Below, piece by piece: positions 1-49,292 of a DNA stretch of 64,000 bases (within the stretch, counting starts at the first letter, position 1; every line of letters begins with the position of its first letter). The notes below the pieces were generated by a model that was not told the DNA's origin, searched no databases, and saw only the letters and a list, made by a program, of their open reading frames with translations. Location of the stretch: assembly GCF_050920415.1 (NCBI RefSeq), contig NZ_CP169309.1; one strand, written 5' to 3'. The translations under genes and the position numbers were made by a program. The stretch is from Escherichia coli (GTDB lineage: Bacteria; Pseudomonadota; Gammaproteobacteria; Enterobacterales; Enterobacteriaceae).

Positions 1-377
1 GAGAAATCACGGGGCCGTGGCAGTCGCATCCCAAACGGATGTTACGTCATAAAGCCATGATTCAGTGTGCCCGTCTGGCCTTCGGATTTGCTGGTATCTA
101 TGACAAGGATGAAGCCGAGCGCATTGTCGAAAATACCGCATACACTGCAGAACGTCAGCCGGAACGCGACATCACTCCGGTTAACGATGAAACCATGCAG
201 GAGATTAACACTCTGCTGATTGCCCTGGATAAAACATGGGATGACGACTTATTGCCGCTCTGTTCCCAGATATTTCGCCGCGACATTCGCGCATCGTCAG
301 AACTGACACAGGCCGAAGCAGTGAAAGCTCTCGGATTCCTGAAACAGAAAGCCACTGAGCAGAAGGTGGCAGCATGA
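1..377 (+). CDS. bet: Bet-like single-strand annealing recombinase, C-terminal part (5' end lies outside the window)
   Basis: Frame is open from the window edge to the stop at 375-377; ATGA stop/start overlap with the downstream exo gene as in the lambda red operon; C-terminal sequence recognised from memory as lambda Bet-like. Confidence 0.6.
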
Positions 378-1054
378 CACCGGACATTATCCTGCAGCGT
401 ACCGGGATCGACGTGAGAGCTGTCGAACAGGGGGATGATGCATGGCACAAATTACGGCTCGGCGTCATCACCGCTTCAGAAGTTCACAACGTGATAGCAA
501 AGCCCCGCTCAGGAAAGAAGTGGCCTGACATGAAAATGTCCTACTTCCACACCCTGCTTGCCGAGGTTTGCACCGGTGTGGCTCCGGAAGTTAACGCTAA
601 AGCACTGGCCTGGGGAAAACAGTACGAGAACGACGCCAGAGCCCTGTTTGAGTTTACTTCCGGCGTGAATGTTACTGAATCCCCGATCATCTATCGCGAC
701 GAAAGTATGCGCACCGCCTGCTCTCCCGATGGTTTATGCAGTGACGGCAACGGCCTTGAACTGAAATGCCCGTTTACCTCCCGGGATTTCATGAAATTCC
801 GGCTCGGTGGTTTCGAGGCAATAAAATCGGCTTACATGGCCCAGGTGCAGTACAGCATGTGGGTGACGCGAAAAGATGCCTGGTACTTTGCCAACTATGA
901 CCCACGAATGAAGCGTGAAGGCCTGCATTATGTCGTGATTGAGCAGGATGAAAAGTACATGGCGAGTTTTGACGAGATGGTGCCGGAGTTCATCGAAAAA
1001 ATGGACGAGGCACTGGCTGAAATTGGTTTTGTATTTGGGGAGCAATGGCGATGA
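374..1054 (+). CDS. exo: Lambda-type 5'-3' exonuclease (YqaJ/lambda Exo family), 226 aa
   Basis: 226 aa ORF starting [40 protein letters not shown], recognised as near-identical to phage lambda Exo; position immediately after bet. Confidence 0.85.
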
Positions 1055-1233
1055 AGCATCCTCACGATAATATCCGGGTAGGCGCGATCACTTTCGTCTA
1101 CTCCGTTACAAAGCGAGGCTGGGTATTTCCCGGCCTTTCTGTTACCCGAAATCCCCTGAAAGCACAGCGGCTGGCTGAGGAGATAAATAATAAACGGGGA
1201 GCTGTATGCACAAAGCATCTCCTGTTGAGTTAA
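1045..1233 (+). CDS. Small lambdoid early-left protein (lambda Orf60a-like)
   Basis: 62 aa ORF overlapping the exo stop, same position as orf60a in lambda. Confidence 0.45.
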
Positions 1234-1397
1234 GAACGAGCATTGAGATGGCACATAGCCTCGCTCAAATTGGAGTCAGGTTTGTGCCAATACCAGTAGA
1301 AACAGACGAAGAATTTCATACGTTAGCCGCATCCCTTTCACAAAAGCTGGAAATGATGGTGGCGAAAGCAGAAGCAGATGAGAGAGACCAGGTATGA
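1206..1397 (+). CDS. Small lambdoid early-left protein (lambda Orf63-like)
   Basis: 63 aa ORF, same strand, positional equivalent in the lambda b-region. Confidence 0.4.
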   Translation: MHKASPVELRTSIEMAHSLAQIGVRFVPIPVETDEEFHTLAASLSQKLEMMVAKAEADERDQV

Positions 1398-1473
1398 CAA
1401 CCACTGAATGCATTTTTCTGGCAGCGGGCTTCATATTCTGTGTGCTTATGCTTGCCGACATGGGACTTGTTCA

Positions 1474-1689
1474 ATGACACATCAGCAAGAAAACGCCCTT
1501 CGCAGTATTGCCCGTCAGGCTAATTCTGAAATCAAAAAAGCCAGACAGCAGTTCCCGGATAAAAACGTCGATGATATTTGCCGTAGCGTACTGAAGAAGC
1601 ACCGCGAAACGGTAACGCTGATGGGATTCACACCGACTCATTTAAGCCTGGCGATCGGCATGTTAAACGGCGTCTTTAAGGAACGGTGA
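1474..1689 (+). CDS. Small lambdoid early-left protein (lambda Orf61-like)
   Basis: ORF 1408-1689; start placed at the internal Met (MTHQQENALRS...) by analogy with lambda. Confidence 0.4.
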   Translation: MTHQQENALRSIARQANSEIKKARQQFPDKNVDDICRSVLKKHRETVTLMGFTPTHLSLAIGMLNGVFKER

Positions 1690-1787
1690 GCATGAAAAAC
1701 AAAATCATCATGGAGCTACAGGCTCCTTTTTTATTATTCGCATTCACCCTCAAGCGTATTAACCAACAATTCAGGGATTAATGAAAG

Positions 1788-2006
1788 ATGGCAGACATCA
1801 TTGATTCAGCATCAGGAATTGAAGAATTACAGCGCAACACAGCAATAAAAATGCGCCGCCTGAACCACCAGGCTATATCTGCCACTCATTGTTGTGAGTG
1901 TGGCGATCCGATAGATGAACGAAGACGCCTGGCCGTTCAGGGTTGTCGGACTTGTGCAAGTTGCCAGGAGGAGATCGAACTTAAGAACAAACAATGGGGA
2001 CTGTGA
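1788..2006 (+). CDS. TraR/DksA-family C4 zinc-finger protein, phage-encoded
   Basis: 72 aa with CxxC(17)CxxC pattern (CCECGD...CRTCASC) typical of TraR/DksA-like proteins; good spacing from upstream genes. Confidence 0.6.
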   Translation: MADIIDSASGIEELQRNTAIKMRRLNHQAISATHCCECGDPIDERRRLAVQGCRTCASCQEEIELKNKQWGL

Positions 2007-2053
2007 TGGCCTCAAAGCAGCAAATTTCAACATCGTCCAACTGAGGTGTAAAA

Positions 2054-2332
2054 ATGTTCAGAATCATTTTTCCTAACACCTGGTACGTCGACCACCACGG
2101 CACTCCCTGCAAAATCCTGCGTTCTACCCACAACAAAGTTCACTACATCCGAAAAGGCAGAACATGTATCGCCAGCATGTTCCGCTTTAATCATGACTTT
2201 GAACCTGTGAATAAAGCTGATGCAGATCGGATAGCAGAAGAGATCGAAACGGCAGAACACATTAAGAAGTTACGTGACATGCGTTCAAAAAGCAGAGGTA
2301 ACCATGGAATCATACAGCCTCACACTCGATGA
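2054..2332 (+). CDS. Hypothetical prophage protein
   Basis: 92 aa ORF between the zinc-finger gene and xis; no recognisable motif. Confidence 0.3.
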   Translation: MFRIIFPNTWYVDHHGTPCKILRSTHNKVHYIRKGRTCIASMFRFNHDFEPVNKADADRIAEEIETAEHIKKLRDMRSKSRGNHGIIQPHTR

Positions 2333-2675
2333 GGCCTGTCAGTTTCTTAAGATATCCAGACCAACCGCCACCAACTGGATACGAACAGGCCGCCTACAGG
2401 CAACACGTAAAGATCCAACCAAGCCAAAATCTCCTTACCTCACAACACGGCAAGCCTGCATTGCGGCGCTTCAGTCTCCGCTGCATACTGTCCAGGTGAG
2501 CGCGGGTGATGGCATAACAGAGGAAAGAAAATGTCACTCTTCCGCAGAAATGAAATATGGTATGCCTCGTATTCGCTCCCGGGCGGGAAACGAATTAAGG
2601 AATCTCTTGGCACAAAGGACAAGCGGCAAGCTCAGGAGTTGCACGACAAGCGAAAAGCAGAACTCTGGCGAGTAG
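2304..2675 (+). CDS. xis: Putative excisionase (Xis); 3' end uncertain because the frame stays open into int
   Basis: Start ATG at 2304 preceded by GAGG; N-terminal 60 residues resemble a small DNA-binding excisionase; located directly upstream of and overlapping int as in lambdoid phages. Confidence 0.4.
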
Positions 2676-3694
2676 AAAAGCTAGGGGATTTACCTGATGT
2701 CACTTTTGAAGAGGCCTGCCTAAGATGGCTTGAGGAAAAAGCTGATAAAAAATCTCTCGATTCAGATAAAAGCCGGATTGAGTTCTGGCTTGAACATTTT
2801 GAGGGTATAAGGCTTAAAGATATCTCGGAGGCAAAGATTTACTCTGCTGTAAGCAGAATGCATAACAGAAAGACGAAAGAAATATGGAAACAGAAAGTTC
2901 AGGCCGCCATCAGGAAAGGTAAAGAACTGCCTGTTTATGAACCAAAGCCAGTATCAACTCAGACAAAGGCAAAGCATCTTGCCATGATAAAGGCCATTCT
3001 CCGTGCTGCAGAACGCGACTGGAAGTGGCTGGAAAAAGCGCCTGTCATCAAGATACCAGCGGTCAGAAACAAGCGAGTCAGATGGCTGGAAAAGGAGGAA
3101 GCAAAACGCCTTATTGATGAGTGCCCCGAACCACTGAAATCTGTCGTCAAGTTTGCGCTGGCAACTGGTCTGAGAAAGTCGAACATCATAAATCTGGAAT
3201 GGCAACAAATCGACATGCAGCGACGAGTTGCCTGGGTGAATCCAGAAGAGAGCAAATCAAACCGCGCCATTGGTGTGGCGCTAAACGATACCGCCTGTAA
3301 AGTGTTGCGTGATCAAATAGGCAAGCATCACAAATGGGTGTTTGTACATACCAAGGCGGCTAAGCGAGCAGATGGAACATCAACGCCTGCGGTCAGGAAG
3401 ATGCGCATCGACAGCAAGACATCATGGCTATCAGCTTGTCGTCGTGCAGGAATTGAAGATTTCCGTTTCCATGACCTCAGACACACCTGGGCAAGCTGGC
3501 TGATTCAGTCAGGCGTCCCATTATCAGTGCTTCAGGAAATGGGCGGATGGGAGTCCATAGAAATGGTTCGTAGGTATGCTCACCTTGCGCCTAATCATTT
3601 GACAGAGCATGCGAGGAAAATAGACGACATTTTTGGTGATAATGTCCCAAATATGTCCCACTCTGGAATTATGGAGGATATAAAGAAGGCGTAA
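2531..3694 (+). CDS. intD: Tyrosine site-specific integrase of an argU-integrating lambdoid prophage (DLP12 IntD type), 387 aa
   Basis: 387 aa; C-terminal catalytic region with [10 protein letters not shown] and RRYAHL motifs; ends 15 bp from the 3' end of tRNA-Arg. Confidence 0.9.
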
Positions 3695-3709
3695 CTGATT
3701 GAATTGTAA

Positions 3710-3786
3710 TGGCGCGCCCTGCAGGATTCGAACCTGCGGCCCACGACTTAGAAGGTCGTTGCTCTATCCAACTGAGCTAAGGGCGC
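3710..3786 (-). tRNA. argU: tRNA-Arg (anticodon UCU)
   Basis: 77 nt cloverleaf read on the minus strand: GCGCCCTTAGCTCAGTTGGATAGAGCAACGACCTTCTAAGTCGTGGGCCGCAGGTTCGAATCCTGCAGGGCGCGCCA; anticodon loop CT-TCT-AA; 3' CCA encoded. Confidence 0.9.
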
Positions 3787-4028
3787 GTTGATACCGCAAT
3801 GCAGTGTAATCGCGTGAATTATACGGTCAACCCTTGCTGAGTCAATGGCTTTTGATCTGGTTGCTGAACAAGTGAACGACCACGTCTGATTTTCTGATTT
3901 ATTTCGCTATAGCGGCAAACAAACGCACCCCGCTGCGCATCTGAATCAAGAAAACCCGTATTTTCATGTATCAAAGTACAATTTCCAGCCCTAACGGAAA
4001 ATTGTCCTACCCTGTGAGACTGGTAACT

Positions 4029-13906: not shown

Positions 13907-14079
13907 CGAAGATTCCGTTTAGACATGTGTGGGTAATTGAGTTGCGTATAATACCCATATTTCCCGCGCGAATCAGCATACATTGCGTGATGATCCGATC
14001 GTGCGGTTATGCTATAACACCACCCTATATATGACCCGAATCGGGTTGAAGCACCAATCAAACGGAACAGGATGCAAAA

Positions 14080-14574
14080 ATGGTTACTTTCCACACCAAT
14101 CACGGCGATATTGTCATCAAGACTTTTGACGATAAAGCACCTGAAACAGTTAAAAACTTCCTGAACTACTGCCGCGAAGGTTTTTACAACAACACTATTT
14201 TCCACCGTGTTATCAATGGTTTCATGATTCAGGGCGGCGGTTTTGAACCGGGCATGAAACAAAAAGCCACCAAAGAACCGATCAAAAACGAAGCCAACAA
14301 CGGTCTGAAAAATACCCGTGGTACGCTGGCAATGGCCCGTACTCAGGCACCGCACTCTGCAACTGCACAGTTCTTCATCAACGTGGTTGATAACGACTTC
14401 CTGAACTTCTCTGGCGAAAGCCTGCAAGGTTGGGGTTACTGCGTGTTTGCTGAAGTGGTTGAAGGCATGGACGTGGTAGACAAAATCAAAGGTGTAGCAA
14501 CCGGTCGTAGCGGTATGCACCAGGACGTGCCAAAAGAAGACGTTATCATTGAAAGCGTGACCGTTAGCGAGTAA
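14080..14574 (+). CDS. ppiB: Peptidyl-prolyl cis-trans isomerase B (cyclophilin)
   Basis: 164 aa cyclophilin sequence. Confidence 0.95.
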
Positions 14575-14576
14575 TC

Positions 14577-15299
14577 GTGGCGACACTCTTTATTGCAGAT
14601 CTTCATCTCTGCGTGGAAGAACCGGCGATCACCGCCGGTTTTCTGCGTTTTTTAGCGGGGGAAGCCCGCAAGGCCGACGCGCTGTATATTCTTGGCGATC
14701 TGTTTGAAGCATGGATTGGCGATGACGATCCCAACCCACTCCATCGCCAGATGGCCGCAGCGATCAAAGCGGTATCCGATTCCGGCGTTCCCTGTTATTT
14801 CATTCATGGCAACCGTGATTTTCTGCTCGGCAAACGCTTTGCCCGTGAAAGCGGGATGACGTTATTGCCGGAAGAAAAAGTGCTCGAACTTTATGGCCGT
14901 CGGGTGCTGATTATGCATGGCGACACGCTGTGCACCGATGACATCGGTTATCAGGCTTTTCGCGCCAAAGTCCACAAGCCGTGGCTGCAAACGCTATTCC
15001 TCGCCCTGCCGTTGTTTGTGCGCAAACGCATTGCCGCGCGAATGCGAGCGAACAGCAAAGAAGCCAACAGCAGTAAATCGCTGGCGATCATGGACGTTAA
15101 CCAAAACGCGGTGGTCAGTGCGATGGAAAAGCATCAGGTGCAATGGTTGATTCACGGGCATACGCATCGCCCGGCGGTGCATGAACTGATCGCCAATCAG
15201 CAACCTGCTTTTCGTGTCGTGTTGGGTGCCTGGCATACGGAAGGTTCGATGGTGAAAGTCACGGCAGATGACGTTGAGTTGATCCATTTTCCATTTTAA
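14577..15299 (+). CDS. lpxH: UDP-2,3-diacylglucosamine pyrophosphatase
   Basis: 240 aa calcineurin-like phosphoesterase; conserved position after ppiB. Confidence 0.9.
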
Positions 15300-15416
15300 A
15301 AAACGCGCAACTTTGCTGATTTCATAGCCGCGCAACCGTTTTCCTTGCTCTCTTTCCGTGCTATTCTCTGTGCCCTCTAAAGCCGAGAGTTGTGCACCAC
15401 AGGAGTTTTAAGACGC

Positions 15417-15926
15417 ATGTCTTCCCGCAATAATCCGGCGCGTGTCGCCATCGTGATGGGGTCCAAAAGCGACTGGGCTACCATGCAGTTCGCCGCCGAA
15501 ATCTTCGAAATCCTGAATGTCCCGCACCACGTTGAAGTGGTTTCTGCTCACCGCACCCCCGATAAACTGTTCAGCTTCGCCGAAAGTGCCGAAGAGAACG
15601 GTTATCAGGTAATTATTGCGGGCGCAGGCGGCGCAGCGCACCTGCCGGGCATGATTGCCGCCAAAACGCTGGTGCCAGTGCTGGGTGTGCCAGTACAGAG
15701 CGCCGCACTGAGCGGTGTCGATAGCCTCTACTCCATCGTACAAATGCCGCGCGGCATTCCGGTGGGTACGCTGGCGATTGGTAAAGCTGGCGCGGCAAAC
15801 GCGGCGTTACTGGCAGCACAAATTCTTGCGACTCATGATAAAGAACTGCACCAGCGTTTGAATGACTGGCGCAAAGCACAAACTGATGAAGTGCTGGAAA
15901 ACCCGGACCCGCGAGGTGCGGCATGA
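15417..15926 (+). CDS. purE: N5-carboxyaminoimidazole ribonucleotide mutase
   Basis: ORF 15390-15926; start at [20 protein letters not shown]; 169 aa. Confidence 0.9.
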
Positions 15927-16990
15927 AACAGGTTTGCGTCCTCGGTAACGGGCAGTTAGGCCGTATGTTGCGCCAGGCAGGCGAACCGTTAGGCATTGCT
16001 GTCTGGCCGGTCGGGCTGGACGCTGAACCGGCGGCGGTGCCCTTTCAACAAAGCGTGATTACCGCTGAGATCGAACGCTGGCCGGAAACCGCATTAACGC
16101 GCGAGCTGGCACGCCATCCGGCCTTTGTGAACCGCGATGTGTTCCCGATTATTGCCGACCGTCTGACTCAGAAGCAGCTTTTCGACAAGCTTCACCTGCC
16201 GACTGCACCGTGGCAGTTACTTGCCGATCGCAGTGAGTGGCCTGCGGTGTTTGATCGTTTAGGTGAACTGGCGATTGTTAAGCGTCGTATTGGTGGCTAT
16301 GACGGTCGCGGTCAATGGCGTTTACGCGCCGATGAAACCGCACAGTTACCAACTGAATGCTACGGCGAATGTATTGTCGAGCAGGGCATTAACTTCTCTG
16401 GCGAAGTATCGCTGGTTGGCGCGCGCGGCTTTGATGGCAGCACTGTGTTTTATCCGCTGACGCATAACCTGCATCAGGACGGTATTTTGCGCACCAGCGT
16501 CGCTTTCCCGCAGGCCAACGCACAGCAGCAGGCGCAGGCCGAAGAGATGCTGTCGGCGATTATGCAGGAGCTGGGCTATGTGGGCGTGATGGCGATGGAG
16601 TGTTTTGTCACGCCGCAAGGTCTGCTGATCAACGAACTGGCTCCGCGTGTGCATAACAGCGGTCACTGGACACAAAACGGTGCCAGCATCAGCCAGTTTG
16701 AGCTGCATCTGCGGGCGATTACCGATCTGCCGTTACCGCAACCGGTAGTGAATAGTCCGTCGGTGATGATCAACCTGATTGGTAGCGATGTGAATTATGA
16801 CTGGCTGAAACTGCCGCTGGTGCATCTGCACTGGTACGACAAAGAAGTGCGTCCGGGCCGTAAGGTGGGGCATCTGAATTTGACCGACAGCGACACATCG
16901 CGTCTGACCGCAACGCTGGAAGCCTTAATCCCGCTGCTGCCGCCAGAGTATGCCAGCGGCGTGATGTGGGCGCAGAGTAAGTTCAGTTAA
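15923..16990 (+). CDS. purK: N5-carboxyaminoimidazole ribonucleotide synthase
   Basis: 355 aa ATP-grasp protein; 4-nt overlap with purE. Confidence 0.9.
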
Positions 16991-17008
16991 CCTGGTGCTC
17001 AAATTCTT

Positions 17009-17206
17009 GCCGGATGCAGCGTGAACACCTTATCCGACCTACTAATCCGGTACCCATTGTAGGCCTGATAAGACGCGTCAAGCGTCGCATCAGGCATGGT
17101 GCGCCGATTACCGGATGCGGCGTGAACGCCTTATCCGACTACCAATCCGGTACCCATTGTAGGCCTGATAAGACGCGTCAAGCGTCGCATCAGGCATGGT
17201 GCGCCA
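17009..17206. repeat. Tandem REP/BIME-type intergenic repeats (two units of about 100 bp)
   Basis: Near-identical units containing gccggatgcggcgtgaacgccttatccg and taggcctgataagacgcgtcaagcgtcgcatcaggc, directly repeated. Confidence 0.7.
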
Positions 17207-17223
17207 TATGCTGGATGCTCCCA

Positions 17224-18120
17224 TCACGACAGCGAAATACAGGTCCCCGCTTCGCCCGCCAGCGTCTCTTCAATCCGCGATAAAGCCCCAATCCACGCAG
17301 GTTTACCACGGCTTCTGACATAGCCACTCACCGCCGTTACCTTCGGCCCCATCGCCCCATCGGCTTTGGCAAATGGCGCTAACTCATCCGGTGTGGCATG
17401 GCGAATGGCGCGTTGCTGCGGCGTTCCCCAGTTTTCATAAACCGCGTCAGCATCGGTGAGGATCACCAGTCCATCGGCATTAATCTGCTCGGCAAGCAAC
17501 GCCGCGGCGAGATCTTTATCAATCACCGCTTCACTCCCTGCTCCGTCATCCGTCACCGGAACACCGCCGCCGCCACTGCAAATCACCACATGCCCCTCTT
17601 TGAGCAACAACTCGATGGCTTCGCTGTCGAGAATTTTACGAGGCTGGGGAGATGCCACCACCCGGCGTAAATATTTGCCATCACGCTTCATTTTCCAGCC
17701 GTAAGCCGTTTCCAGTGCCTCTTGTTCTTCTGGCTGATAAACCGGGCCGATAAACTTCTCTGGCTGCAAAAACGCCGGATCATCAGACGAAACTTCAATG
17801 CGTGTCAGCACCGTCGTCACAGGCGGCATCTGCGGCTGTGCGCTCAAACTCTGCGCCAGCATATAGCCAATCATCCCCTGACTTTCCGCCACCAGCACAT
17901 CCAGTGGATACGGTTCGACCTCTTTCCACGCCAGATTCTGTAACGCCAACAACCCCACCTGCGGCCCGTTGCCGTGAACAATCGCCAGCCGATAAGCACG
18001 CGCCAGGCGCGCCAGCGCGGGAACAGCACTGGCAATATTGCGATATTGATTTTCTGCCGTCAGCGCCTCACCGCGCTGGAGTAAGGCATTGCCCCCAAGA
18101 GCTACAACCAGTGTTTTCAT
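17224..18120 (-). CDS. ybcF: Carbamate kinase-like protein
   Basis: 298 aa amino-acid-kinase family; N-terminal [13 protein letters not shown]. Confidence 0.85.
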
Positions 18121-18932
18121 GGTGTTCCTTGTAATAATTGTTGACCAAGCCAGAACCCCAGCAGCGTATCAGCCCCTGACGTATGCCCCAGCGCCAGCAG
18201 CGAATCAATCGCAACAGCGGTACGTTTCGGGCAACTCAGAGCATGAACAAAGTGCAGGAGTGGCGAGGCGAAGTATCCTTGCGCGGCATAACGTAAATAA
18301 TTAACGCTCACCGCTGTGGTAACGAGTTGAAGATTGTCGGAACAGGCAAAAAACGGGCGACCGGAGCGCGCATCTAAAGCGCCATAATACCAGGCTGCCA
18401 GCAGCATTCCCGTTAGCGTGTCATCATGACTCGGCGTTAATCCCGGCCCTTTACCCAGCCAGTGCCGCCAGTCGGTCTTAACGCCATTGAGCGCGGCCTG
18501 AAAACAGTGACGAAACTGGCGTAATTCAGCGGGAAGCGGATCGCCTGCCGCCAACGCCAGCGGCCCGAAAAGCCCGGTTTCCTCCGCGCGTTGCATCCAT
18601 GCCGCTGCAAGTGGTTGAGGATGCGCAGGCGGCGTAATACGCAGCAAACAATAACGCTGTGGCTGTTTAACCGTGAAACGCCCGAGGCGAATCCCTTGAG
18701 CCATAACCTGTGGTCGTTCATTGCCGCATAATCCACCGCATAACGCATCGAATTGCGCGCGGCGAAGCACCCATCCTCCGGGACCGAAACCACTTCCCTG
18801 ACGATGCAGCGTTAACAATTCACCGCTTTCCGTCATCAGGTTAATCGCCCGCCGCCACACGCCCGCTAACCGCCAGGACTGGCGATAATTCGGTGCACTA
18901 CGGCTGGCAAGCAGAGGATGGATGATCGTCAT
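18117..18932 (-). CDS. ylbF: DUF2877-family protein
   Basis: ORF 18117-19025; start at MTIIHPLL gives 271 aa and abuts ylbE without overlap. Confidence 0.7.
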
Positions 18933-18942
18933 TGCGCGTTCC

Positions 18943-20202
18943 TCAACCAATCCCCATGCTTTCAGCCAGAGCTTCCAGCGCCTGTTCAAAGCACGCCAGC
19001 GGTGCCCGCACAGTGCCTGCACCAATCTGCCCGATCCCCGCCTCTTTATGGGCGATACCCGTATTGATGAGTGGTGTAATGCCGGTTTCTACCACGCGAC
19101 GAATATCCAGCCCCAGGCACGCGCCCTGGAAATCCCAGCCAGGGATCTGCAACTGCATATTGCGCTCAAGGAAGATTTCTGCCATCTCTTCAGATACCGC
19201 TCTGGCTGCTTCCATGCCACCCGCACCGACAAAGCGCGTTACGCCAGGCGCTGCGATCATCGCGGCACCACCGATACCAAAGGTTTCGGTAATCGCGCTA
19301 TCGCCCATATCCGGGTTCGCCTGCTCCTGCGAGAAGCCGGTGAAAAACAGACCTTGCGGAGTGTTAACTGGCGCAGTAAACCAGCGCTCGCCCAGCCCGC
19401 TGACCCGAATCCCGAACATATTGCCGTTGCGGGTCATAGCCGTGACGATGCTGCCCGCGCGGATCATCGCGCCTGCATCCATCGCCGCCTTGCAATAGGC
19501 CATCGCGAGGTTGAGGAAGAACTGATCGGTCACGCTGAGGAAATCCATCACTTCCGCGATGTGCTGTTTATCGTGATTGAGGCGAGCAATTTGTGGGGCC
19601 AGCGCACGCATTAACAGTGCTGAGGAAGCAATATTGCGCTGATGGAATTCATCGCCCATCGTAATGCCCTGCGCCATCATCGCGGTGAGATCGATACCGC
19701 GCTCCATGCGCCCCAGCGCCGCGCTTAATACCGGCATTAACACATCACGCATCCAGCGATGGCGAGTCAGGACATCTTCGCCGTAAGCGCCAAAACGCAT
19801 CACTTTACCGATACCTTCATTGAGGTTGCAGTACGCCCGGTTACCGTCGGTCACGTTCTCGACCACCAGCATCGGCATACTGGCAGAAGTAATTCCGCCC
19901 ATTGGCCCGACGGCATTCACATGGTGACAAGGAATGAAGTTCACTTCCCCCTGCTCCAGCATCGCCAGTGCCTGCGCTTCATCTTTCGCCCAGCCTTCAA
20001 ACAGACACGCACCCACGCACGCCCCTTTCATGGGGCCGGTCATCTCCTGCCAGCGCATCGGCGGCCCGGCGTGAAGCAGTGTTTTACCCTGATTTAATTC
20101 ATTAATGAGTGAAGACGCCGGTTGCACATCCAGCCAGTGTGGACGAGCGCGACGAATTTGTTCGATAACCGCAGCATTGGCTTGCGCCACTGATGTAAAC
20201 AT
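18943..20202 (-). CDS. ylbE: DUF1116-family protein, intact 419 aa
   Basis: Single uninterrupted 419 aa ORF between fdrA and ylbF. Confidence 0.8.
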
Positions 20203-20211
20203 GGGAACCCC

Positions 20212-21879
20212 TTATTGCAAACATTCTAATAAACGAGCCAGTTTTTTATTGCCGCCAGCGACTGGTGACCATTGGTAATGCACAACCGGTTTGCTGGCGC
20301 TTTGTAGTTCCAGCGCAAAGCTGCGTAATCCGATGTTAATCACGGCGACGTTTTCCAGTAATGACGGTGTGTGTGGCTGTGTGGCAGGCGAGAGCGGATG
20401 AATTAACGCCGCCGCCAGCAAGGTGGCTTCCGGCAGCGAACTCACTACCGCGATCCCTGCATCTTCCAGCGTGGCGATTTGTTGCGAGCGGCATTGCGGG
20501 TCACGTTCAGTGCCTGTCACCGTGGCAATGGCATACAGTGGTTGATTGTCTGGACGCGCGGCACAGGCTTTTTGCCAGGCGCTTACCAGCGAGGCTGCAG
20601 GATCGGTGGTCGCACCGAAGCCAATCACCACATCAAGCAGCAATACGCGCACTTGCGGTTTAGCGCCGAGATCGGCAATTAACTGGTTGCGTAAGGTTGG
20701 GTCGATCATCGGATGGGGACGCCCGACGGTGTAAAAATCATCGCCGAGGTCAATAATCTGGTGACCATCGGCGTCGAGCATCATGCCGTGATGATGGGTA
20801 TCGTCGGCTACCACGCCAAGATGCGCGGCAAGTAATCCCGCCGCTTCGGCGGCTAACGTACCGCCGGTATACAAGCCGCAAATAAGTCCGCTGCTGACAG
20901 GTGCTATTGCGTTACGTCGCGCCGTAACGCGTGAAAGCAGGCAAGCCAGGCGTGCAGCCTCATCCAGCGAGGAGGCAAACCAGACATTCTCGTCGCGGGC
21001 CACCGCCGGGATATAACCTAAAAACAGCGCCACCGTTGGTTTGCCGGTTGCTTTCATGGCATTAACAATTTTCAGACGCACAGCTTCGGCAGGCGGTTTT
21101 GAAACAAACGCCAGCACTTCGCTTTTCTCATCTACACTGAGCATTTCCAGCGCCGTTAGCGCACTGATGCCGCCCACGTCACGGCTGAGGTCGCGCCCGC
21201 CAAGACCAATCGCGTGAGTAATTCCCTCACCTGCCAGTGCAATCTGCGAACACAGTTCCTGAATCCCGGTACCGGAAGCGCCAATGACGCCAATGTTGCC
21301 TTCCGGCATCACGTTAGCAAAAGCCAGCGGCGTGGCGGCAATCATCGATGTACCGCAGTCCGGCCCCATCACCAGCAAACCTTTTTCCCGCGCGTGGGTT
21401 TTAAGTTGGATTTCATCTTCCAGCGTGACGTTATCGGAGAACATCATCACGTTGAGGTTGCGATCCAGCGCCTGGTTCGCCAGTTCCGCCGCATACTCGC
21501 CAGCCACTGAAATCAGCGCCAGATTGGCATTGGGTAATTTCTGACAGGCACTGTCCCAGCGACGCACCAGCGTCAACGCCTGGCTGCTGCCCGTTCCCTG
21601 CGCCAGTTGCTTTAGCGCCTCTTCAAGCTGCTGCATAATCGCCTGCGCGATCCCCGCATCCGCCGCTTCGCTACGAATTGCCACGCAAATATCGTTCGGC
21701 GTGGCGTTATTAAAATCGTCATGCCAGAAACCTGTGGTATCTAATAACGCTTTATTGGCGGGCGTACCCATCATTACGGAAACATCATCAACATTTTCTG
21801 ATTCGCTGAGTTTTCGTGAAATAATCATTAAACTGACCGAATCCTGAAAACACCCTTTTTTAATAAAGGCGTGGATCAT
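20212..21879 (-). CDS. fdrA: FdrA (succinyl-CoA synthetase alpha-like CoA-binding protein)
   Basis: 555 aa, recognised FdrA sequence. Confidence 0.85.
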   Translation of the reverse strand: MIHAFIKKGCFQDSVSLMIISRKLSESENVDDVSVMMGTPANKALLDTTGFWHDDFNNATPNDICVAIRSEAADAGIAQAIMQQLEEALKQLAQGTGSSQALTLVRRWDSACQKLPNANLALISVAGEYAAELANQALDRNLNVMMFSDNVTLEDEIQLKTHAREKGLLVMGPDCGTSMIAATPLAFANVMPEGNIGVIGASGTGIQELCSQIALAGEGITHAIGLGGRDLSRDVGGISALTALEMLSVDEKSEVLAFVSKPPAEAVRLKIVNAMKATGKPTVALFLGYIPAVARDENVWFASSLDEAARLACLLSRVTARRNAIAPVSSGLICGLYTGGTLAAEAAGLLAAHLGVVADDTHHHGMMLDADGHQIIDLGDDFYTVGRPHPMIDPTLRNQLIADLGAKPQVRVLLLDVVIGFGATTDPAASLVSAWQKACAARPDNQPLYAIATVTGTERDPQCRSQQIATLEDAGIAVVSSLPEATLLAAALIHPLSPATQPHTPSLLENVAVINIGLRSFALELQSASKPVVHYQWSPVAGGNKKLARLLECLQ

Positions 21880-22195
21880 AACAACTCCTTAAAAATTGCA
21901 CCCATGGCAATTGCACGAGCAGTGTTAATGTGGCGATTACGGTATCGATGGATGGTGACAAATAAGGTGATGAATATCACACGGAGATTATTAGCAAAAG
22001 AATTCAAATAACCGCCAGACTATTACGCGTTATTTTTTAATAAGCATAGTTGTTTTAAAAACCAGGTTAAAAGCGAGCGGATTATCAAATAAATTCTAAC
22101 TATATTTTTTTGCCTGTCTGGATCACATAATCCAGATATTTTCCCTGTATGTTAATTGCAGTCATGCTTCACACCGTCGTTAAAAAGGAAGACAG

Positions 22196-23245
22196 ATGAA
22201 AATCAGTCGGGAAACACTCCACCAGCTAATCGAGAATAAACTCTGCCAGGCTGGGTTAAAACGTGAGCACGCTGCAACCGTGGCTGAAGTATTGGTTTAC
22301 GCCGATGCCAGAGGGATCCACTCTCATGGCGCGGTGCGCGTTGAATACTACGCAGAGCGCATATAAAAAGGCGGCACCAACCGCGAACCAGAGTTTCGTC
22401 TTGAAGAAACCGGACCGTGCTCGGCAATTTTACATGCCGACAATGCCGCCGGACAGGTCGCGGCAAAAATGGGTATGGAACATGCCATCAAAACCGCCCA
22501 GCAAAAAGGCGTTGCGGTGGTCGGTATCAGCCGGATGGGTCACAGCGGCGCAATCTCTTATTTTGTGCAGCAGGCAGCCCGCGCCGGATTGATTGGCATT
22601 TCGATGTGCCAGTCCGATCCAATGGTGGTGCCGTTTGGCGGCGCGGAAATTTACTACGGCACTAACCCACTGGCCTTTGCCGCGCCGGGAGAAGGCGACG
22701 AGATTCTTACTTTTGATATGGCGACTACCGTACAGGCGTGGGGGAAAGTTCTCGATGCACGCTCGCGCAATATGTCTATCCCGGATACTTGGGCGGTCGA
22801 TAAAAACGGTGCACCAACAACCGATCCCTTCGCGGTTAACGCCCTGCTCCCGGCTGCCGGACCGAAAGGTTATGGCCTGATGATGATGATCGACGTCCTC
22901 TCAGGCGTCTTACTCGGCTTACCGTTCGGGCGTCAGGTCAGTTCGATGTATGACGATTTACACGCCGGACGTAATTTGGGGCAATTACATGTAGTTATTA
23001 ATCCGAACTTTTTCTCCTCCAGCGAATTATTCCGTCAACATCTTAGCCAGACCATGCGCGAATTAAATGCCATTACCCCCGCGCCCGGTTTTAACCAGGT
23101 TTATTATCCCGGACAGGATCAGGATATTAAACAACACAAAACCGCCGTCGAAGGTATCGAAATTGTTGATGATATTTACCAGTATTTAATTTCCGACGCG
23201 CTTTATAACACGTCATACGAAACGAAAAATCCCTTTGCGCAATAA
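22196..23245 (+). pseudogene. allD: Ureidoglycolate dehydrogenase gene interrupted by an in-frame TAA at codon 57 (22364-22366)
   Basis: ATG at 22196 with AAGGAA RBS; MKISRETLHQLIENKLCQAGLKREHAATVAEVLVYADARGIHSHGAVRVEYYAERI then TAA; the same frame continues KGGTNREPEF... through the 258 aa ORF 22469-23245. Confidence 0.8.
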
Positions 23246-23266
23246 TTGTTGAGACAGGACTTTCTT

Positions 23267-24502
23267 ATGATTACACATTTCCGTCAAGCCATAGAAGAAA
23301 CGCTGCCCTGGCTTTCCTCTTTTGGCGCTGACCCAACGGGTGGAATGACCCGTTTACTTTATTCGCCGGAGTGGCTGGAAACCCAGCAGCAATTTAAAAA
23401 AAGAATGGCAGCAAGTGGGCTGGAAACACGTTTCGATGAAGTGGGGAATTTATACGGCCGCCTGAACGGCAGCGAATACCCCCAGGAAGTGATTCTGAGC
23501 GGTTCGCATATTGATACCGTGGTTAACGGCGGTAACCTCGACGGACAATTCGGCGCACTGGCGGCGTGGCTGGCGATTGACTGGCTGAAAACGCAATACG
23601 GCGCGCCGCTGCGAACGGTCGAAGTGGTGGCAATGGCGGAAGAAGAAGGCAGCCGCTTCCCGTATGTCTTCTGGGGCAGTAAAAATATCTTTGGGCTGGC
23701 GAATCCTGACGACGTGCGGAATATCTGTGATGCCAAAGGAAATAGTTTTGTCGATGCAATGAAGGCTTGCGGATTTACTCTGCCGAACGCCCCACTAACT
23801 CCGCGTCAGGATATTAAAGCCTTTGTCGAACTGCATATCGAACAGGGCTGTGTGCTGGAAAGTAATGGGCAGTCAATTGGCGTGGTGAATGCAATTGTCG
23901 GGCAACGTCGCTATACGGTGACGCTGAACGGCGAATCAAACCATGCAGGCACCACGCCGATGGGTTATCGTCGTGATACGGTTTACGCTTTCAGTCGCAT
24001 TTGCCATCAGTCAGTTGAGAAAGCGAAAAAGATGGGCGATCCGCTGGTGCTGACCTTTGGCAAGGTGGAGCCGCGCCCGAATACGGTGAATGTAGTGCCG
24101 GGTAAAACCACGTTCACCATTGATTGTCGTCATACCGACACTGCCATGTTGCGCGATTTTACCCAACAGTTAGAAAACGACATGCGGGCGATTTGCGATG
24201 AAATGGACATTGGTATTGATATCGATTTATGGATGGACGAAGAACCCGTGCCGATGAACAAGGAGCTTGTCGCCACCCTGACAGAATTGTGTGAAAGCGA
24301 AAAACTGAATTATCGGGTAATGCACAGTGGTGCCGGGCACGACGCACAAATTTTCGCGCCTCGCGTGCCGACCTGCATAATTTTCATTCCCAGCATCAAC
24401 GGGATCAGCCATAACCCGGCGGAACGCACCAATATTACCGACCTTGCCGAAGGGGTCAAAACGTTGGCACTCATGCTTTATCAACTTGCCTGGCAGAAAT
24501 AA
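23267..24502 (+). CDS. allC: Allantoate amidohydrolase
   Basis: ORF 23246-24502; start at MITHFRQAIE; M20 peptidase-family sequence. Confidence 0.9.
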   Translation: MITHFRQAIEETLPWLSSFGADPTGGMTRLLYSPEWLETQQQFKKRMAASGLETRFDEVGNLYGRLNGSEYPQEVILSGSHIDTVVNGGNLDGQFGALAAWLAIDWLKTQYGAPLRTVEVVAMAEEEGSRFPYVFWGSKNIFGLANPDDVRNICDAKGNSFVDAMKACGFTLPNAPLTPRQDIKAFVELHIEQGCVLESNGQSIGVVNAIVGQRRYTVTLNGESNHAGTTPMGYRRDTVYAFSRICHQSVEKAKKMGDPLVLTFGKVEPRPNTVNVVPGKTTFTIDCRHTDTAMLRDFTQQLENDMRAICDEMDIGIDIDLWMDEEPVPMNKELVATLTELCESEKLNYRVMHSGAGHDAQIFAPRVPTCIIFIPSINGISHNPAERTNITDLAEGVKTLALMLYQLAWQK

Positions 24503-24512
24503 GGAGTTATAA

Positions 24513-25298
24513 ATGGGATATTTAAATAACGTCACCGGTTACCGCGATGATTTACTGGCTAACCGTGCGATTGTTAAACACGGTAATTTCGCGCTGCTAA
24601 CCCCGGACGGTCTGGTAAAAAATATTATTCCGGGCTTTGAAAATTGTGACGCGACAATCCTCTCCACGCCAAAGCTGGGGGCCTCTTTTGTTGATTATCT
24701 GGTCACACTGCATCAAAACGGCGGCAACCAACAGGGCTTCGGTGGTGAAGGAATTGAAACGTTCCTGTATGTGATTTCTGGAAATATCACTGCCAAAGCC
24801 GAAGGGAAAACATTTACCTTAAGCGAAGGTGGCTATCTTTATTGCCCGCCGGGTTCCTTAATGACGTTTGTTAATGCTCAGGCCGAAGACAGCCAAATAT
24901 TCTTGTATAAGCGCCGCTATGTTCCGGTAGAAGGCCATGCGCCGTGGCTGGTTTCTGGCAATGCCAGCGAACTGGAACGCATTCACTATGAAGGTATGGA
25001 CGATGTGATCTTGCTGGACTTCCTGCCCAAAGAGTTAGGTTTTGATATGAACATGCATATCCTCTCTTTTGCGCCAGGTGCCAGCCACGGTTATATCGAA
25101 ACTCACGTCCAGGAACACGGTGCCTATATTCTTTCCGGTCAGGGGGTTTATAACCTCGACAATAACTGGATCCCGGTGAAAAAAGGCGATTACATCTTTA
25201 TGGGCGCTTATTCCTTACAGGCCGGTTATGGCGTAGGGCGTGGTGAAGCGTTTAGTTATATTTATTCGAAGGATTGTAACCGCGACGTTGAGATTTAA
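24513..25298 (+). CDS. allE: (S)-ureidoglycine aminohydrolase (bicupin)
   Basis: 261 aa cupin protein downstream of allC. Confidence 0.85.
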   Translation: MGYLNNVTGYRDDLLANRAIVKHGNFALLTPDGLVKNIIPGFENCDATILSTPKLGASFVDYLVTLHQNGGNQQGFGGEGIETFLYVISGNITAKAEGKTFTLSEGGYLYCPPGSLMTFVNAQAEDSQIFLYKRRYVPVEGHAPWLVSGNASELERIHYEGMDDVILLDFLPKELGFDMNMHILSFAPGASHGYIETHVQEHGAYILSGQGVYNLDNNWIPVKKGDYIFMGAYSLQAGYGVGRGEAFSYIYSKDCNRDVEI

Positions 25299-38330: not shown

Positions 38331-38364
38331 TGAGGGACACGGTGCCTGTTTCATAAAGATCATT

Positions 38365-38782
38365 TATACCCGTCATACTTCAAGTTGCATATGCGTTGGC
38401 AAGTTATTCAGGGATAGCCGGATGAGTGACATCACCATCCGGCTTAAGATTCCATACTATAATAATTCGAGTTGCAGGACAAAACGCCAGTGGCGTTTTG
38501 AACAACGCTTGCGTTGACCCTGAAAGGGTGAGGCCTAAGGCCGAGTAACGCGACAGGCGAGTGACAAATTCGTCGGGAACGAATTTGACCAGCCTCTGGC
38601 TGGCCTTCGGTGAAAGGCATCCTGCCTTTCAGTCATCCCCAGTCACTTACTGGGGTGAGCGACAAATCCGCATGGAGCGGATTTGAACGCTGCTTGCAGC
38701 GGTCCCGTAAGGGGTGAGGCCCATGGATGGGCCGAATAACTCGCAGACGCAGCACATGCAACTTGAAGTATGATGGGTATAT
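38365..38782. repeat. ERIC/IRU-like composite intergenic element bounded by 30-bp inverted repeats
   Basis: Left arm tatacccgtcatacttcaagttgcatatgc, right arm gcacatgcaacttgaagtatgatgggtata; interior contains the ERIC core-like agtcacttactggggtgagcg and internally repeated ggtgaggcc...ggccga segments. Confidence 0.5.
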
Positions 38783-38939
38783 ACACAATGAACTTCAAGA
38801 CACTTGCTTCGGTATCTGGAAATTATCATTAATTCTGGATGCGACCAGCCTTGCTATATCTGGCAATGTTTCTTCAAAAACGTCGATATTGTATCCCAGA
38901 AATCTCACACACTGCTGAACCGGCATGTTCATTAATTAT

Positions 38940-39342
38940 TTATCCAGGCCATTTGCAATCAGTACCATCACTATTATATGCCTCAATATTTTCTTCAAAC
39001 TCAGTTATTTTTCCACTTTTCGATTTATAGTAAGAGCTATTAAATCTTGCACCCTGCGTAGCAACAACATACAATCCGTTGACTTTACATCCTATAACCT
39101 CACTCCATGTATATGTAAACTCTGAAGGTCTATCATCGAAAGTCACTTCCAATTTTTTCGTAAATGCAAGAGGTATGAAATTTGAGGATATTCCATAAAC
39201 CACATAACCTAAAACAACATCACCAGAAGATACTTCAACAAATTTTAAATTTATCTTCCCGAAACTAAAACAGCCAACCGTAGTTTGTTATTTAGCAAAT
39301 AAGAAAAAGGGCATCAAACAAAAAATTAAAACAAATAATTTA
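38940..39342 (-). pseudogene. Frameshifted remnant of a small exported protein
   Basis: ATG at 39342 opens a signal-peptide-like frame (MKVKLFVLIFCLMPFSYLL...) that stops after about 32 codons; a different frame continues as the 87 aa ORF 38940-39203. Confidence 0.3.
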
Positions 39343-40268
39343 ACTTTCATATCATTTACTCCAATTCAGTTATTCGCCTCTGTACAAAAGCACACACAGA
39401 TTTTGAATTAATGGCGTACAAAAACATAATCGGATGAAAATACCACACCGGAATATTACTGATATAGCGGGATCTTACTCATTCGCTAGACTGAAAATGC
39501 AATTGAACAGAAATTTCTTACTAGTGTTTTTATCAGATGATCGGAAAGGAAATCAACTCACTGGCAAGTATCATAAGCTCAAATTGGCATATTGTATATT
39601 CCCATAAATACTTTTATTTTTTGATTAACATACTCAATACTACACATCACTAATTGAGAGAAGATTAACTTCATCATCTTTGATTAGGTACGTTTTTTAA
39701 TTTTCAATGACGCATCATAAAAAAGGGCTTACCAAGTTTAACACTAATAACAGGATATAAAGAAAACATATTGCTATATGAATCCTTTGGCGATGTTTTG
39801 GTTATGGTAATCTTTCCTTCTTTCAAGTGCTCTGCTATTATATGAAATTGAATCGGTCTTGTTGCATCACTTACCCGCAATGGATTACCAGCGTAAGCTT
39901 CATATCCTCCACCATTATTCATATGTAAAATAGTGTATTCGTCATTTAAAAATGACTGCTTACTATCGTAGACTTGGTAGTATATATTACTTATATCAAG
40001 ATAAATTACTATAGAGATATACTTAATTTTTCATTTAGCATTAATGATGTATCCATGGAATCTATACATCTTTCAATATCAGTTATTTTTTCTTCTATAT
40101 ACGTAGCATAATTTTTTGGCACTGGCGTGTTTAGCCCTCATATACCCTCATTAACTAAGACACCATTTTGCTTGCTTTTTACATTGTAATAAAGACAATC
40201 AATATTGAATTTATTATTTTTATATTTCAGTGTTGTATATACAGTAAAATCATGCAGCGAACGCCCAT

Positions 40269-40544
40269 CTAAAACAATTGCGGGCGTGTCAGAAAAAAGT
40301 CAAATGAATAAGATGGATTATTTTCATAATCAGTCATAAATTTCATCTTTCTTATTTCATGATCAACGATCGCATAGATCTCATGATTAGATTCATCATA
40401 TCCATAAATGATTTCACCACCAGTACTGGCAGTAGCAGTAGCACTACTACAAATCAACATAATTACAAGTACATATCTAGTCAAGTTGAAAATCCTTAGG
40501 GGCAGATGATGTTTTTTCCAAGATGGATTGAAATTTTTCAACAT
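40269..40544 (-). CDS. Small hypothetical protein, possible orphan exported protein
   Basis: 91 aa ORF in an AT-rich decayed region; internal hydrophobic stretch. Confidence 0.25.
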   Translation of the reverse strand: MLKNFNPSWKKHHLPLRIFNLTRYVLVIMLICSSATATASTGGEIIYGYDESNHEIYAIVDHEIRKMKFMTDYENNPSYSFDFFLTRPQLF

Positions 40545-40854
40545 AAGAATCCATTAATTGCTTCTGATATTTTTCATTAATTATTTTTCGCGTATTATTA
40601 TATTAAATTTTATCACTGTTAATATATGTGGGGATTTTTACTCGTAAAAATCCCCGCCTCAATTCCCCAAATCATAATTGATACAGGACACAACTCTAGC
40701 AATGGTATCGTGAATAGTTTTCTTTAATAAGGCACGTCTCAATTCTTGAACATAAATTCGAATTATTTAGTAAAAAAACATCATCCCTGGGAGTATTACC
40801 TATTTTTGTATAATGCTATATTTATAGTAAACAATTCACAAGAAAATATTATTA

Positions 40855-41826
40855 CTAATATTTATATTCCTCCCACTGAGCACCGTATCGATGCTTTAAC
40901 AGTTTAACTTTAATTTCATCATATGTTTTAACTTTACTACCATCAATCTTAAGGCGAATTTTATTCGAGGTGATATCAACATAATTTCTATTTTCCCCAC
41001 CCGCAGGGAAAAAATCAAACATAAAATTAGACATGTTTTGTTCTTTTTTCATGAGAGCTCCATACTCACACATGTCATTTATATTTTGTATGTATGGAGT
41101 GCCCCCCTGACATGATGGATAATGAAAATCAATTATAGTAAAAAGCGATTTATTGACACTCCTCTGAAAGAACCACTTATTATTTACAATACGATAGGTT
41201 AAAGATTTAAATGTATACCAGTGACTTCCTGGAAGAAAAGAGTAAGCTTCATTAAGATTGACAGTAAATACCTTAGTTTCTCCAGAGGAAAGCTTTACCC
41301 ATTCTGATTTTATATCACAATTATCGCCCATACCAAAATAAAGCTCATCATTGGCATCATCCTCAACAAAATCACATATATTGGTTGCGGAAGGACGGAA
41401 TTTCAGATAGAAACCACTTGTGGATATTAAAAAAGAATCCTCACATAAAGGAGAAAAAAAATAAGGCTCCGATGTGTGTGAGGAGATAGGTAATAATCGT
41501 CTATGAATGAAATTTTCGCTACCCCCCAAATTTGTAAAACTTATTTTTGCTAACACACGAGAGTCAATTTGCTTAACGGTTAATCTAACATCAACATCAA
41601 ACATATTACGATTTGGCAATTTTTCCTCGACTCCGTCAGTGTAATGTGATAACTCAAGTATATTGTCCTCAAGAGTCATCGAATTTAATTTTTGTTCGGA
41701 AACATATTGTGCAATAACCTCATCATTGCAGTATCCATGAAATGAAATAAACATTAGCACTGCAATCTTAACTAATCTCAAAATACTTTTCAATATTGTA
41801 TGCATTATTAAAAACCAGCGGGTCAT
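40855..41826 (-). CDS. Putative immunity protein 2 (exported), paralogue of the 43491-44312 gene
   Basis: 323 aa; N-terminal hydrophobic signal-like segment; conserved segments shared with 43491-44312 (FTN...S, FxPG..Y, F.KS..Y+.VN+KWF); directly downstream of the HExxH gene. Confidence 0.6.
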   Translation of the reverse strand: MTRWFLIMHTILKSILRLVKIAVLMFISFHGYCNDEVIAQYVSEQKLNSMTLEDNILELSHYTDGVEEKLPNRNMFDVDVRLTVKQIDSRVLAKISFTNLGGSENFIHRRLLPISSHTSEPYFFSPLCEDSFLISTSGFYLKFRPSATNICDFVEDDANDELYFGMGDNCDIKSEWVKLSSGETKVFTVNLNEAYSFLPGSHWYTFKSLTYRIVNNKWFFQRSVNKSLFTIIDFHYPSCQGGTPYIQNINDMCEYGALMKKEQNMSNFMFDFFPAGGENRNYVDITSNKIRLKIDGSKVKTYDEIKVKLLKHRYGAQWEEYKY

Positions 41827-42582
41827 GTTTTGATTTTAATTCTTTTGCATTGGCAATTTCTCTTTTTTTTCCCAAATCGTTACTGCTTAATCCACCATAA
41901 TACTGTTCTCCATCCCAGATAATAAAAAGGTGAGATAACTCATGGCATAATGTGGAGACTCGAGAGTTTTCTCCCGTTGGATTTTTACATGTGAAATTTT
42001 GTAAGATATCTATAGATATTCTTTCTCGATACTCTAACTTTAAAAGTTCAGCCTTCGACTTATTTTTATACTCACTACTTTGGTATTGGGGCCGATTTAG
42101 ATCTATATGAGTCGTCTGAGCAGCCGGTATACGGGCTGAACCATTGACTAAATTGGTATAATTTTTAAAATTGCCATATATTAGTTGTACATTATCTTGC
42201 GTTCGAGTTTCAATGATCAAGCTATCACAAATCATGATCATTCTGTAAACCCCCTCTTTTATAAAAGTATGTGCGTCAATATTCTTGGTTTGTGGAGTGA
42301 AGTTCCCATTATTATCTGACTTTTGACAAGGAGCATAGTGTTCCATTGTTATAATAGCATCACCTGGTAATCCAAATATATCTTCAAAATTTTTCTGATC
42401 TGCTGGTGTCCATGCTTCCAGATTTTTGCTCTGATATTCAATACTCGCTTTGTTTCTTCCAAAGCAGGCGTTATCATGTTGTAAAATTGATCAGTAACCT
42501 TTGCTTCTTTTTTACATATATTGCCTTTTTGAGTTACCCCTTGTGAACTTCCTTTGTTATTATTCATAAACACCTCCCTCAA
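41768..42582 (-). pseudogene. HExxH-motif putative type VI effector, copy 2, disrupted by a -1 frameshift in an A5 run
   Basis: Two ORFs (42349-42582 and 41768-42346) in different frames both align to the intact paralogue at 44336-45127; HELSH at 41930-41944; frames switch at the T5/A5 run 42423-42427. Confidence 0.7.
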
Positions 42583-42975
42583 TCATATCTATACTTTGAT
42601 GCAATAGCCTGACTTTTATCGTCAGCTCACTGTCAGTGATAAATATTTCCGTATACCCATCCTTATCCGTTTCCCCTCGCGCTTGTGTGCCGTCCTCAAA
42701 AAAGGCAATGTAGCGTGTTTCTGAATACGGTATCCCGTCATCGTCTGTAAAATGAAACTGGAGGGTGTATTTCTCAGGTTCATCCTTATCTTCATTGTCG
42801 TTCCCAGAATCATTTCCATCGCCACCACCGACCCCGCCATTGCCTTGCCCGCCCTCTGCACCACCATCTTTATCACTACCTTCATCCGTCAGTGCCTCCA
42901 GCACGCCCGGTTGCAGTGTCGGTACCGGAGTCCCCGGACTACCCCCACCATTCAGATTTATCTTCGGCCCCCAGG
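42560..42975 (-). pseudogene. Orphan 3' fragment of a vgrG gene (last 140 codons or so)
   Basis: Translation GPKINLNGGGSPGTPVPTLQP...DEPEKYTLQFHFTDDDGIPYSETRYIAFFEDGTQ matches the C-terminal region of the full vgrG at 45117-47522; DNA 42897-42970 matches 45463-45536; no upstream vgrG body. Confidence 0.75.
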
Positions 42976-43335
42976 GAAAGATTACGAAAGCCCGCTCCCC
43001 GCAAGGACTGACGCCAGATACTTTCTGTCCATGGCTGCTTTTCGCATCTTACGTCTTAACCCTGCCTTGAATACCTTATCATTCGTCAAAATATTAATAG
43101 CGATGTGCCGTATCCCTGAAAATAATTCTGCTGCATTTCCTCTTCTTATTTTGCAGTCGTCTTCATTCATTACCACGTCCAGACGCCAGTGCAGCTTATT
43201 CTCCACGTGCCCGTGGTTTCGGATTGCTGTGGCGAACTTCTCTGCGGTTAAATCAGCAGAACTGATATAATATCTGACCGTCATTTCTGGCTCTTTCTTT
43301 TGTTCTGCTATTATGGACCGAAAGGAGACTGCCAC
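42972..43335 (-). mobile_element. H-repeat (ISAs1-family) transposase 3' remnant
   Basis: 117 aa ORF ending ...[28 protein letters not shown], recognised as the C-terminus of H-rpt/ISAs1-type transposases; no N-terminal part present. Confidence 0.65.
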
Positions 43336-49275: not shown

Positions 49276-49292
49276 CAATCTAACACCTGTCA

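Follow-up and report, generated by a model that had tools for sequence, protein, structure and literature searches.

The closest described counterpart of the locus considered here is the allFGHK operon of Escherichia coli K-12 (b0518, b4572, b0520, and b0521, also annotated as fdrA, ylbE, ylbF, and ybcF; Kim & Kim 2022, 2024, 2025). The operon, its enzymes, and its regulators are already known, from work published between 2021 and 2025. The same four genes occupy positions 17224..21879 of a 64,000-nucleotide (nt) stretch of E. coli DNA (contig NZ_CP169309.1, assembly GCF_050920415.1), referred to below as the window, and there is very little doubt that this segment is an ordinary, intact allFGHK operon. 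The adjacent allD gene carries a nonsense codon.

Purified K-12 AllF, AllG, and AllH together have oxamic transcarbamylase (OXTCase) activity (PMC11326118). In strain MG1655, deletion of allF or allG alone abolishes production of oxamate from allantoin and deletion of allH nearly does so; full complementation of oxamate formation requires allF, allG, and allH together (PMC11326118). YbcF, or AllK, is a catabolic carbamate kinase (PMC9843812), and AllD oxidizes ureidoglycolate to oxalurate, the AllFGH substrate (PMC12535856). AllFGH converts oxalurate and phosphate to oxamate and carbamoyl phosphate, and AllK transfers the phosphate of carbamoyl phosphate to ADP, releasing ATP, NH3, and CO2; these steps make up the last part of the “oxamate branch” by which allantoin is used anaerobically.

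Two-, three-, and four-gene transcripts of the operon have been detected in K-12 by reverse transcription PCR (RT-PCR) (PMC9843812), and in anaerobic cultures allantoin raises expression of an allF'-'lacZ fusion more than 38-fold (PMC12535856). Expression needs both anaerobiosis and allantoin, and both AllS and ArcA; upstream of allF, AllS binds a fragment from -203 to -144, and ArcA one from -142 to -83 (PMC12535856). Transcription of all four genes would start from one promoter between allF and the divergent allD, in their common 316-nt region, with AllS and ArcA as activators.

Two other systems bear comparison. The arginine deiminase pathway (arcABC) follows the same logic, with a phosphorolytic transcarbamylase yielding carbamoyl phosphate from which a carbamate kinase obtains ATP and NH3, a parallel drawn previously (PMC9843812); AllK and the arcABC kinase belong to the same carbamate kinase family (TIGR00746 arcC, 421 bits). 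The transcarbamylases differ, however: AllFGH is not of the aspartate or ornithine transcarbamylase fold, has three subunits, and acts on oxalurate rather than citrulline. OXTCase has been described as without similarity to known transcarbamylases (PMC11326118). Its largest subunit, unlike the arcABC ornithine transcarbamylase, resembles the alpha chain of succinyl-CoA synthetase (SCS): FdrA residues ~114–290 match SCS-alpha chains, with E-values down to 6.7e-12, as well as the Pfam domains CoA_binding and Ligase_CoA, and members of the SCS-alpha/ATP-citrate lyase family are fold relatives of FdrA. The score of 51.6 bits is nonetheless far under the family cut-off of 336, and what has been demonstrated for the enzyme is transfer of a carbamoyl group rather than ligation to CoA.

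Open reading frames (ORFs) were listed with their translations for window positions 14000..25000. All four operon genes are on the minus strand: the OXTCase subunit genes allF (21879..20212, 555 amino acids), allG (20202..18943, 419 amino acids), and allH (18932..18117, 271 amino acids), followed by the carbamate kinase gene allK (18120..17224, 298 amino acids). A scripted check of the four genes found no internal stops. The ORF list gives allH in a longer form of 302 amino acids, with a TTG start (19025..18117); the ATG at 18932 matches the annotation in NZ_CP169399.1 (strain MFDS1022581, from animal-source food in South Korea), a public record 100% identical over the operon segment, with gene coordinates that coincide with those of the window over 50 kb. 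There are 9 nt between allF and allG and 10 nt between allG and allH, and allH and allK overlap by 4 nt (ATGA). A Shine-Dalgarno-like sequence precedes each operon start codon (for example AAGGAG, 6 nt upstream of the allF ATG, and GAGGA, 7 nt upstream of the allH ATG). The allD start is 316 nt from that of allF, on the opposite strand.

Genes, order, and spacing, including the 4-nt overlap, are those of K-12, as are the divergent allD and the convergent purK; the order F-G-H-K is embedded in the allantoin cluster in both, with exact synteny from purK through the operon to allD-allC-allE and colinearity from purK to allS. A simple scan of positions 16900..22300 returned three promoter-like and three terminator-like sites, where chance alone would give 4.0 and 6.0, so that it carried no usable signal; it called no internal promoter or terminator above chance inside the operon. 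The tight spacing, the allH/allK overlap, and this lack of internal signals are consistent with co-transcription. The initial annotation, made from the sequence alone, had proposed a single operon divergent from allD and linked to the allantoin system, as the four-gene K-12 transcript (PMC9843812) and the induction of the allF'-'lacZ fusion (PMC12535856) bear out. It described the packing correctly except that the fdrA-ylbE gap is 9 nt and not 10, and the RNA-seq under anaerobic allantoin conditions that it suggested is in effect already covered, in K-12, by the reporter fusion and RT-PCR.

The allK-purK spacer (16991..17223), which marks where the operon ends on its 3' side, consists of palindromic repeats of the repetitive extragenic palindromic (REP) type. 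It is 233 nt long here and 194 nt in K-12, with a recurring GCCTGATGCGACGCTTGACGCGTCTTATCAGGCCTAC motif, and lies between the ends of two convergent genes. An Rfam scan placed a REP-derived naRNA4 (RF02564) match in it, at 17062..17140 on the minus strand (73 bits), which was the only match found; there was none in the allD/allF control region. No intrinsic terminator was called in the spacer by the simple scan.

Each of the four products matches the expected family along its whole length. AllF matches NCBIfam NF004760 (FdrA) over its full length (positions 1–555 of 555), at 1026.7 bits against a cut-off of 433; it also matches Pfam PF02629 (CoA_binding) and PF00549 (Ligase_CoA) and, in the PDB, 3dmy, “Protein fdrA” (E = 9.5e-296). 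AllG matches PF06545 (“AllG,” formerly DUF1116; E = 1.7e-97) and AllH matches PF11392 (“AllH,” formerly DUF2877; E = 2.5e-29); the current Pfam names of these families are “Oxamate carbamoyltransferase subunit AllG” and “AllH.” A 421-residue AllG homologue in the PDB, 3clq (E = 1.3e-110), aligns over residues 2–414, so a single chain of about 420 amino acids is the normal architecture of the family. No meaningful PDB match was obtained for AllH. AllK scores 617 bits against the NCBIfam carbamate kinase equivalog NF006926 (cut-off 416) and also matches Pfam AA_kinase.

The operon products are 96.8–98.6% identical in amino acid sequence to the characterized K-12 proteins (AllF 96.8%, AllG 98.6%, and AllH 97.8%, these three with no indels), with nucleotide divergence of about 4–5%. 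For allG compared with b4572, nucleotide identity is 95.2% with 0 gaps. Synonymous and non-synonymous differences number 42 and 18 in allF, 53 and 6 in allG, and 24 and 6 in allH; these differences are thus mainly synonymous, as would be expected if function has been maintained. AllK exceeds its K-12 counterpart by one residue (298 and 297 amino acids), the K-12 stop codon being replaced by a Ser codon (window 17224..17229).

The 4,656-nt operon segment was matched in 5,423 of 5,426 complete E. coli genomes, where it is annotated as fdrA, ylbE, ylbF, and ybcF. The haplotype in the window is nevertheless rare, with at least 99% identity in only one of these genomes. In NZ_CP062910.1, an O112ab:H8 strain, an IS66-like ISEc8 element cuts the operon match in two, and “carbamate kinase (x2)” is annotated, which suggests an ISEc8 insertion in ybcF/allK.

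From orthology and synteny with K-12, for which function and co-transcription are known experimentally, we infer that the operon is functional in this strain. Whether it has a substrate is another matter. The allD gene (22196..23245, plus strand), encoding ureidoglycolate dehydrogenase, is colinear with K-12 allD over 1050 nt, but is a pseudogene here: alignment with the K-12 gene shows TAA in place of the TCA of Ser57 (22364..22366, plus strand). This is its sole internal stop, and the gene is flagged “internal stop” in the NCBI annotation of NZ_CP169399.1. Codon 57 is TCA in K-12 and in four related strains (H2, H3, H8, and H19), all five inspected directly. Alleles were counted in the complete genomes with 41-mer probes centered on the variant, so that no 28-nt megablast seed could miss it; the allD counts cover the window-type and K-12-type flank haplotypes. 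TAA with window-type flanks was found in one of the 5,426 genomes, that of the strain whose sequence matches the window exactly, and TAA with K-12-type flanks in none. The window flanks are themselves a rare haplotype, and the single-genome count is weak evidence alone, since the TCA control with the same flanks matched only 17 genomes.

AllD cannot function without Arg48 and His116 (PMC3527362). The truncated product would have 56 residues and lack His116, while a restart at Met92 (a 258-amino-acid ORF) would lack Arg48, His44, and Tyr52. With the essential residues divided in this way, neither fragment can be active. The complete series AllD, AllFGH, AllK is therefore not found here, intact AllD being the missing member. 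Because AllD makes the AllFGH substrate and allD carries a stop, the first step of the oxamate branch is probably blocked: oxalurate would not be made, and the allFGHK enzymes would be left without substrate. The rest of the allantoin regulon is intact (allS, allA, allR, gcl, hyi, glxR, allW, allB, ybbY, glxK, allE, and allC), and ureidoglycolate would go by way of AllA into the intact glyoxylate/glycerate branch. The early nonsense codon in allD might also have a polar effect on allC and allE, which lie downstream of it.

The stop codon could instead be an assembly or sequencing error, in which case the whole oxamate branch, allD as well as allFGHK, would be functional. The TAA allele comes from one assembly only, the C-to-A change extends a run of A residues (TCAAAAGG to TAAAAAGG), a context error-prone on some platforms, and elsewhere in allD conservation is good, most of the differences being synonymous. 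The change is, however, a substitution and not a homopolymer-length error; the internal stop was flagged independently by the NCBI annotation; and the only other pseudogene flags in 50 kb of NZ_CP169399.1 are insertion sequence (IS) or partial fragments, so the assembly is not error-rich. An error therefore seems rather unlikely, and the nonsense codon is treated here as real.

If allD is dead, allFGHK might be under relaxed selection and beginning to decay, or it might have been kept for a job independent of AllD, for instance the use of oxalurate taken up from the surroundings. What could be read in this way is an intact allFGHK next to a truncated allD, and a count of window-unique codon changes in allFGHK (6 non-synonymous to 10 synonymous) with a higher non-synonymous share than in the whole-gene comparison with K-12. 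These counts are too small to interpret, however, and singleton changes are usually enriched in non-synonymous variants. A nonsense allele present in one genome is very recent, leaving no time for either decay or selection to show; allFGHK has no lesion, and no evidence was found that oxalurate is imported or comes from another source. Either version of this idea is very improbable, and an intact operon beside a recently inactivated allD remains the preferred description.

The control region shared by allD and allF (21880..22195), which in K-12 includes the AllS- and ArcA-binding fragments, has the K-12 length of 316 nt and no indels, with 21 substitutions. Their distribution is uneven: all are between -195 and -72 from the allF ATG (window 21951..22074), while the 121 nt adjoining allD and the 71 nt adjoining allF are identical to K-12. 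Differences at -183, -169, -167, -150, and -148 are inside the fragment bound by AllS in electrophoretic mobility shift assays of K-12 (-203/-144), and those at -140, -135, -115, -107, -106, and -104 are in or near the corresponding ArcA fragment (-142/-83). Two forms exist of a 9-nt block at -80..-72 (window 21951..21959), GTCACCATC in the window and ACTCGTTGT in K-12, present in 10 and 3,765 of the 5,426 genomes, respectively. In six strains compared, both flanks of the spacer are invariant and the center is a mosaic of variants. To judge from these patterns, the control region looks like a recombination mosaic.

Such a rare variant might conceivably retune control by AllS and ArcA; alternatively, OXTCase and carbamate kinase might be used independently of AllD, for example to gain ATP and NH3 from oxalurate supplied by other gut microbes. 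Even taken jointly, these two proposals have only a slight chance of being right.

There remains the question of ylbE (allG), which was the point of the initial annotation: it held that the gene reads as one 419-amino-acid ORF here, in contrast to a K-12 copy split by a frameshift, and that this was likely the functional ancestral state. The first part is correct. Alignment with the K-12 ylbE region gives 0 gaps against b4572 and shows no frameshift; the window has GGGGG at gene nt 252–256, as does NC_000913.3, and reads through to codon 420. The contrast with K-12 does not hold, as ylbE (b4572) is a single 1260-nt coding sequence in NC_000913.3, the current MG1655 sequence, and is split only in older records. 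In W3110 (NC_007779.1) ylbE has 1259 nt and is flagged “frameshifted.” Only two differences separate it from NC_000913.3: G114A, which is silent, and a G missing from the five-G run at nt 252–256, which brings in a stop at codon 87. The old records (W3110 and U00096.2) have the same gene in the same position with the same flanking genes as the window, but they read GGGG where GGGGG stands in the window, in NC_000913.3, and in a further 4,942 genomes.

The four-G allele was found in four of the 5,426 genomes, namely W3110 and three MG1655-derived records (CIT, LIM, and CAR) with coordinates that match the old MG1655 reference; the five-G allele was found in 4,942. G114A and the missing G have been reported against the old reference (PMC5460176), and the same two ylbE differences have been cited as earlier-described variations in common MG1655 stock cultures (PMC4404585). 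In 2013 U00096.3 replaced U00096.2 as the corrected reference (EcoGene 3.0 and EcoCyc; PMC3531124; PMC5210515). The “split ylbE” of K-12 is thus a one-base discrepancy, G4 for G5, in the W3110 record and in the MG1655 sequence as it stood before 2013, and E. coli as a rule has an uninterrupted 419-amino-acid ylbE, the current K-12 reference included. The gene is moreover functional in K-12, because the MG1655 allG deletion loses oxamate production. Intactness is the normal state and therefore does not set this window apart; it is presumably also ancestral, as the initial annotation had supposed, but its picture of a functional pathway is doubtful given the stop at allD codon 57.

That an intact ylbE here is a noteworthy ancestral survival set against a truly decayed K-12 gene is hardly tenable, for although four K-12 records do carry the 1259-nt form, several papers treat the gene as a pseudogene, and sporadic lesions occur in wild strains (such as the one at nt 493 described below), the current MG1655 reference is intact, independent laboratories have seen the same two differences in MG1655-derived strains, the four-G allele is restricted to so few genomes, and the oxamate phenotype of the allG deletion refutes decay in MG1655.

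Two further observations concern ylbE. The second-closest genome, NZ_AP027764.1 (strain 2017-02-2CC), has an independent 1-nt deletion in the gene (C at nt 493), with a stop at codon 175 and a “frameshifted” annotation; this may be a real lesion or an assembly error. Separately, an NtrC peak from genomic systematic evolution of ligands by exponential enrichment (SELEX), at old K-12 coordinate 547,672, is listed as an fdrA-ylbF “spacer” (PMC8743547). Its position is inside ylbE, at about nt 92, or approximately window 20111. It seems that ylbE, annotated at the time as a pseudogene, was passed over as a gene; a site for a nitrogen regulator within the allFGHK operon could be real and relevant.

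Some points weigh against the reading of this locus as an ordinary, working allFGHK operon beside a dead allD. The proteins differ from those of K-12 by 18 substitutions in AllF and 6 each in AllG, AllH, and AllK, any of which might affect function. The regulator-binding part of the control region is where all 21 of its differences from K-12 are found, and regulation could differ accordingly. The allD stop is known from a single assembly. As to the K-12 side of the comparison, W3110 cells may actually carry G4, or the W3110 record may share the MG1655 sequencing error.

Beyond the allantoin genes, the whole window is colinear with K-12, at only ~95–97% identity, with some replacements. Within positions 1..3800, the genes directly beside a tRNA-Arg (3710..3786) are envY, ybcH, and nfrA, where K-12 holds the DLP12 prophage. 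In place of the K-12 rhsD region the window has IS2, hypothetical genes, and a tssI/vgrG gene of type VI secretion (38331..49290), and about 3.8 kb at 57840..61665 have no K-12 counterpart.

As a discovery the locus is of small value, the operon being known and an intact ylbE the norm; the allD nonsense allele, in a single isolate, is mildly interesting. The superseded K-12 “ylbE pseudogene” nonetheless still misleads, as in its treatment as a “neutral” integration site and in the scoring of the NtrC peak as intergenic. A verdict on a pathway drawn from a single gene can mislead as well: here ylbE, the gene that was flagged, is fine, and allD, which supplies the substrate, is broken. As a naturally allD-null strain, MFDS1022581 could be used to study how flux is split between the oxamate and glyoxylate branches of allantoin use.

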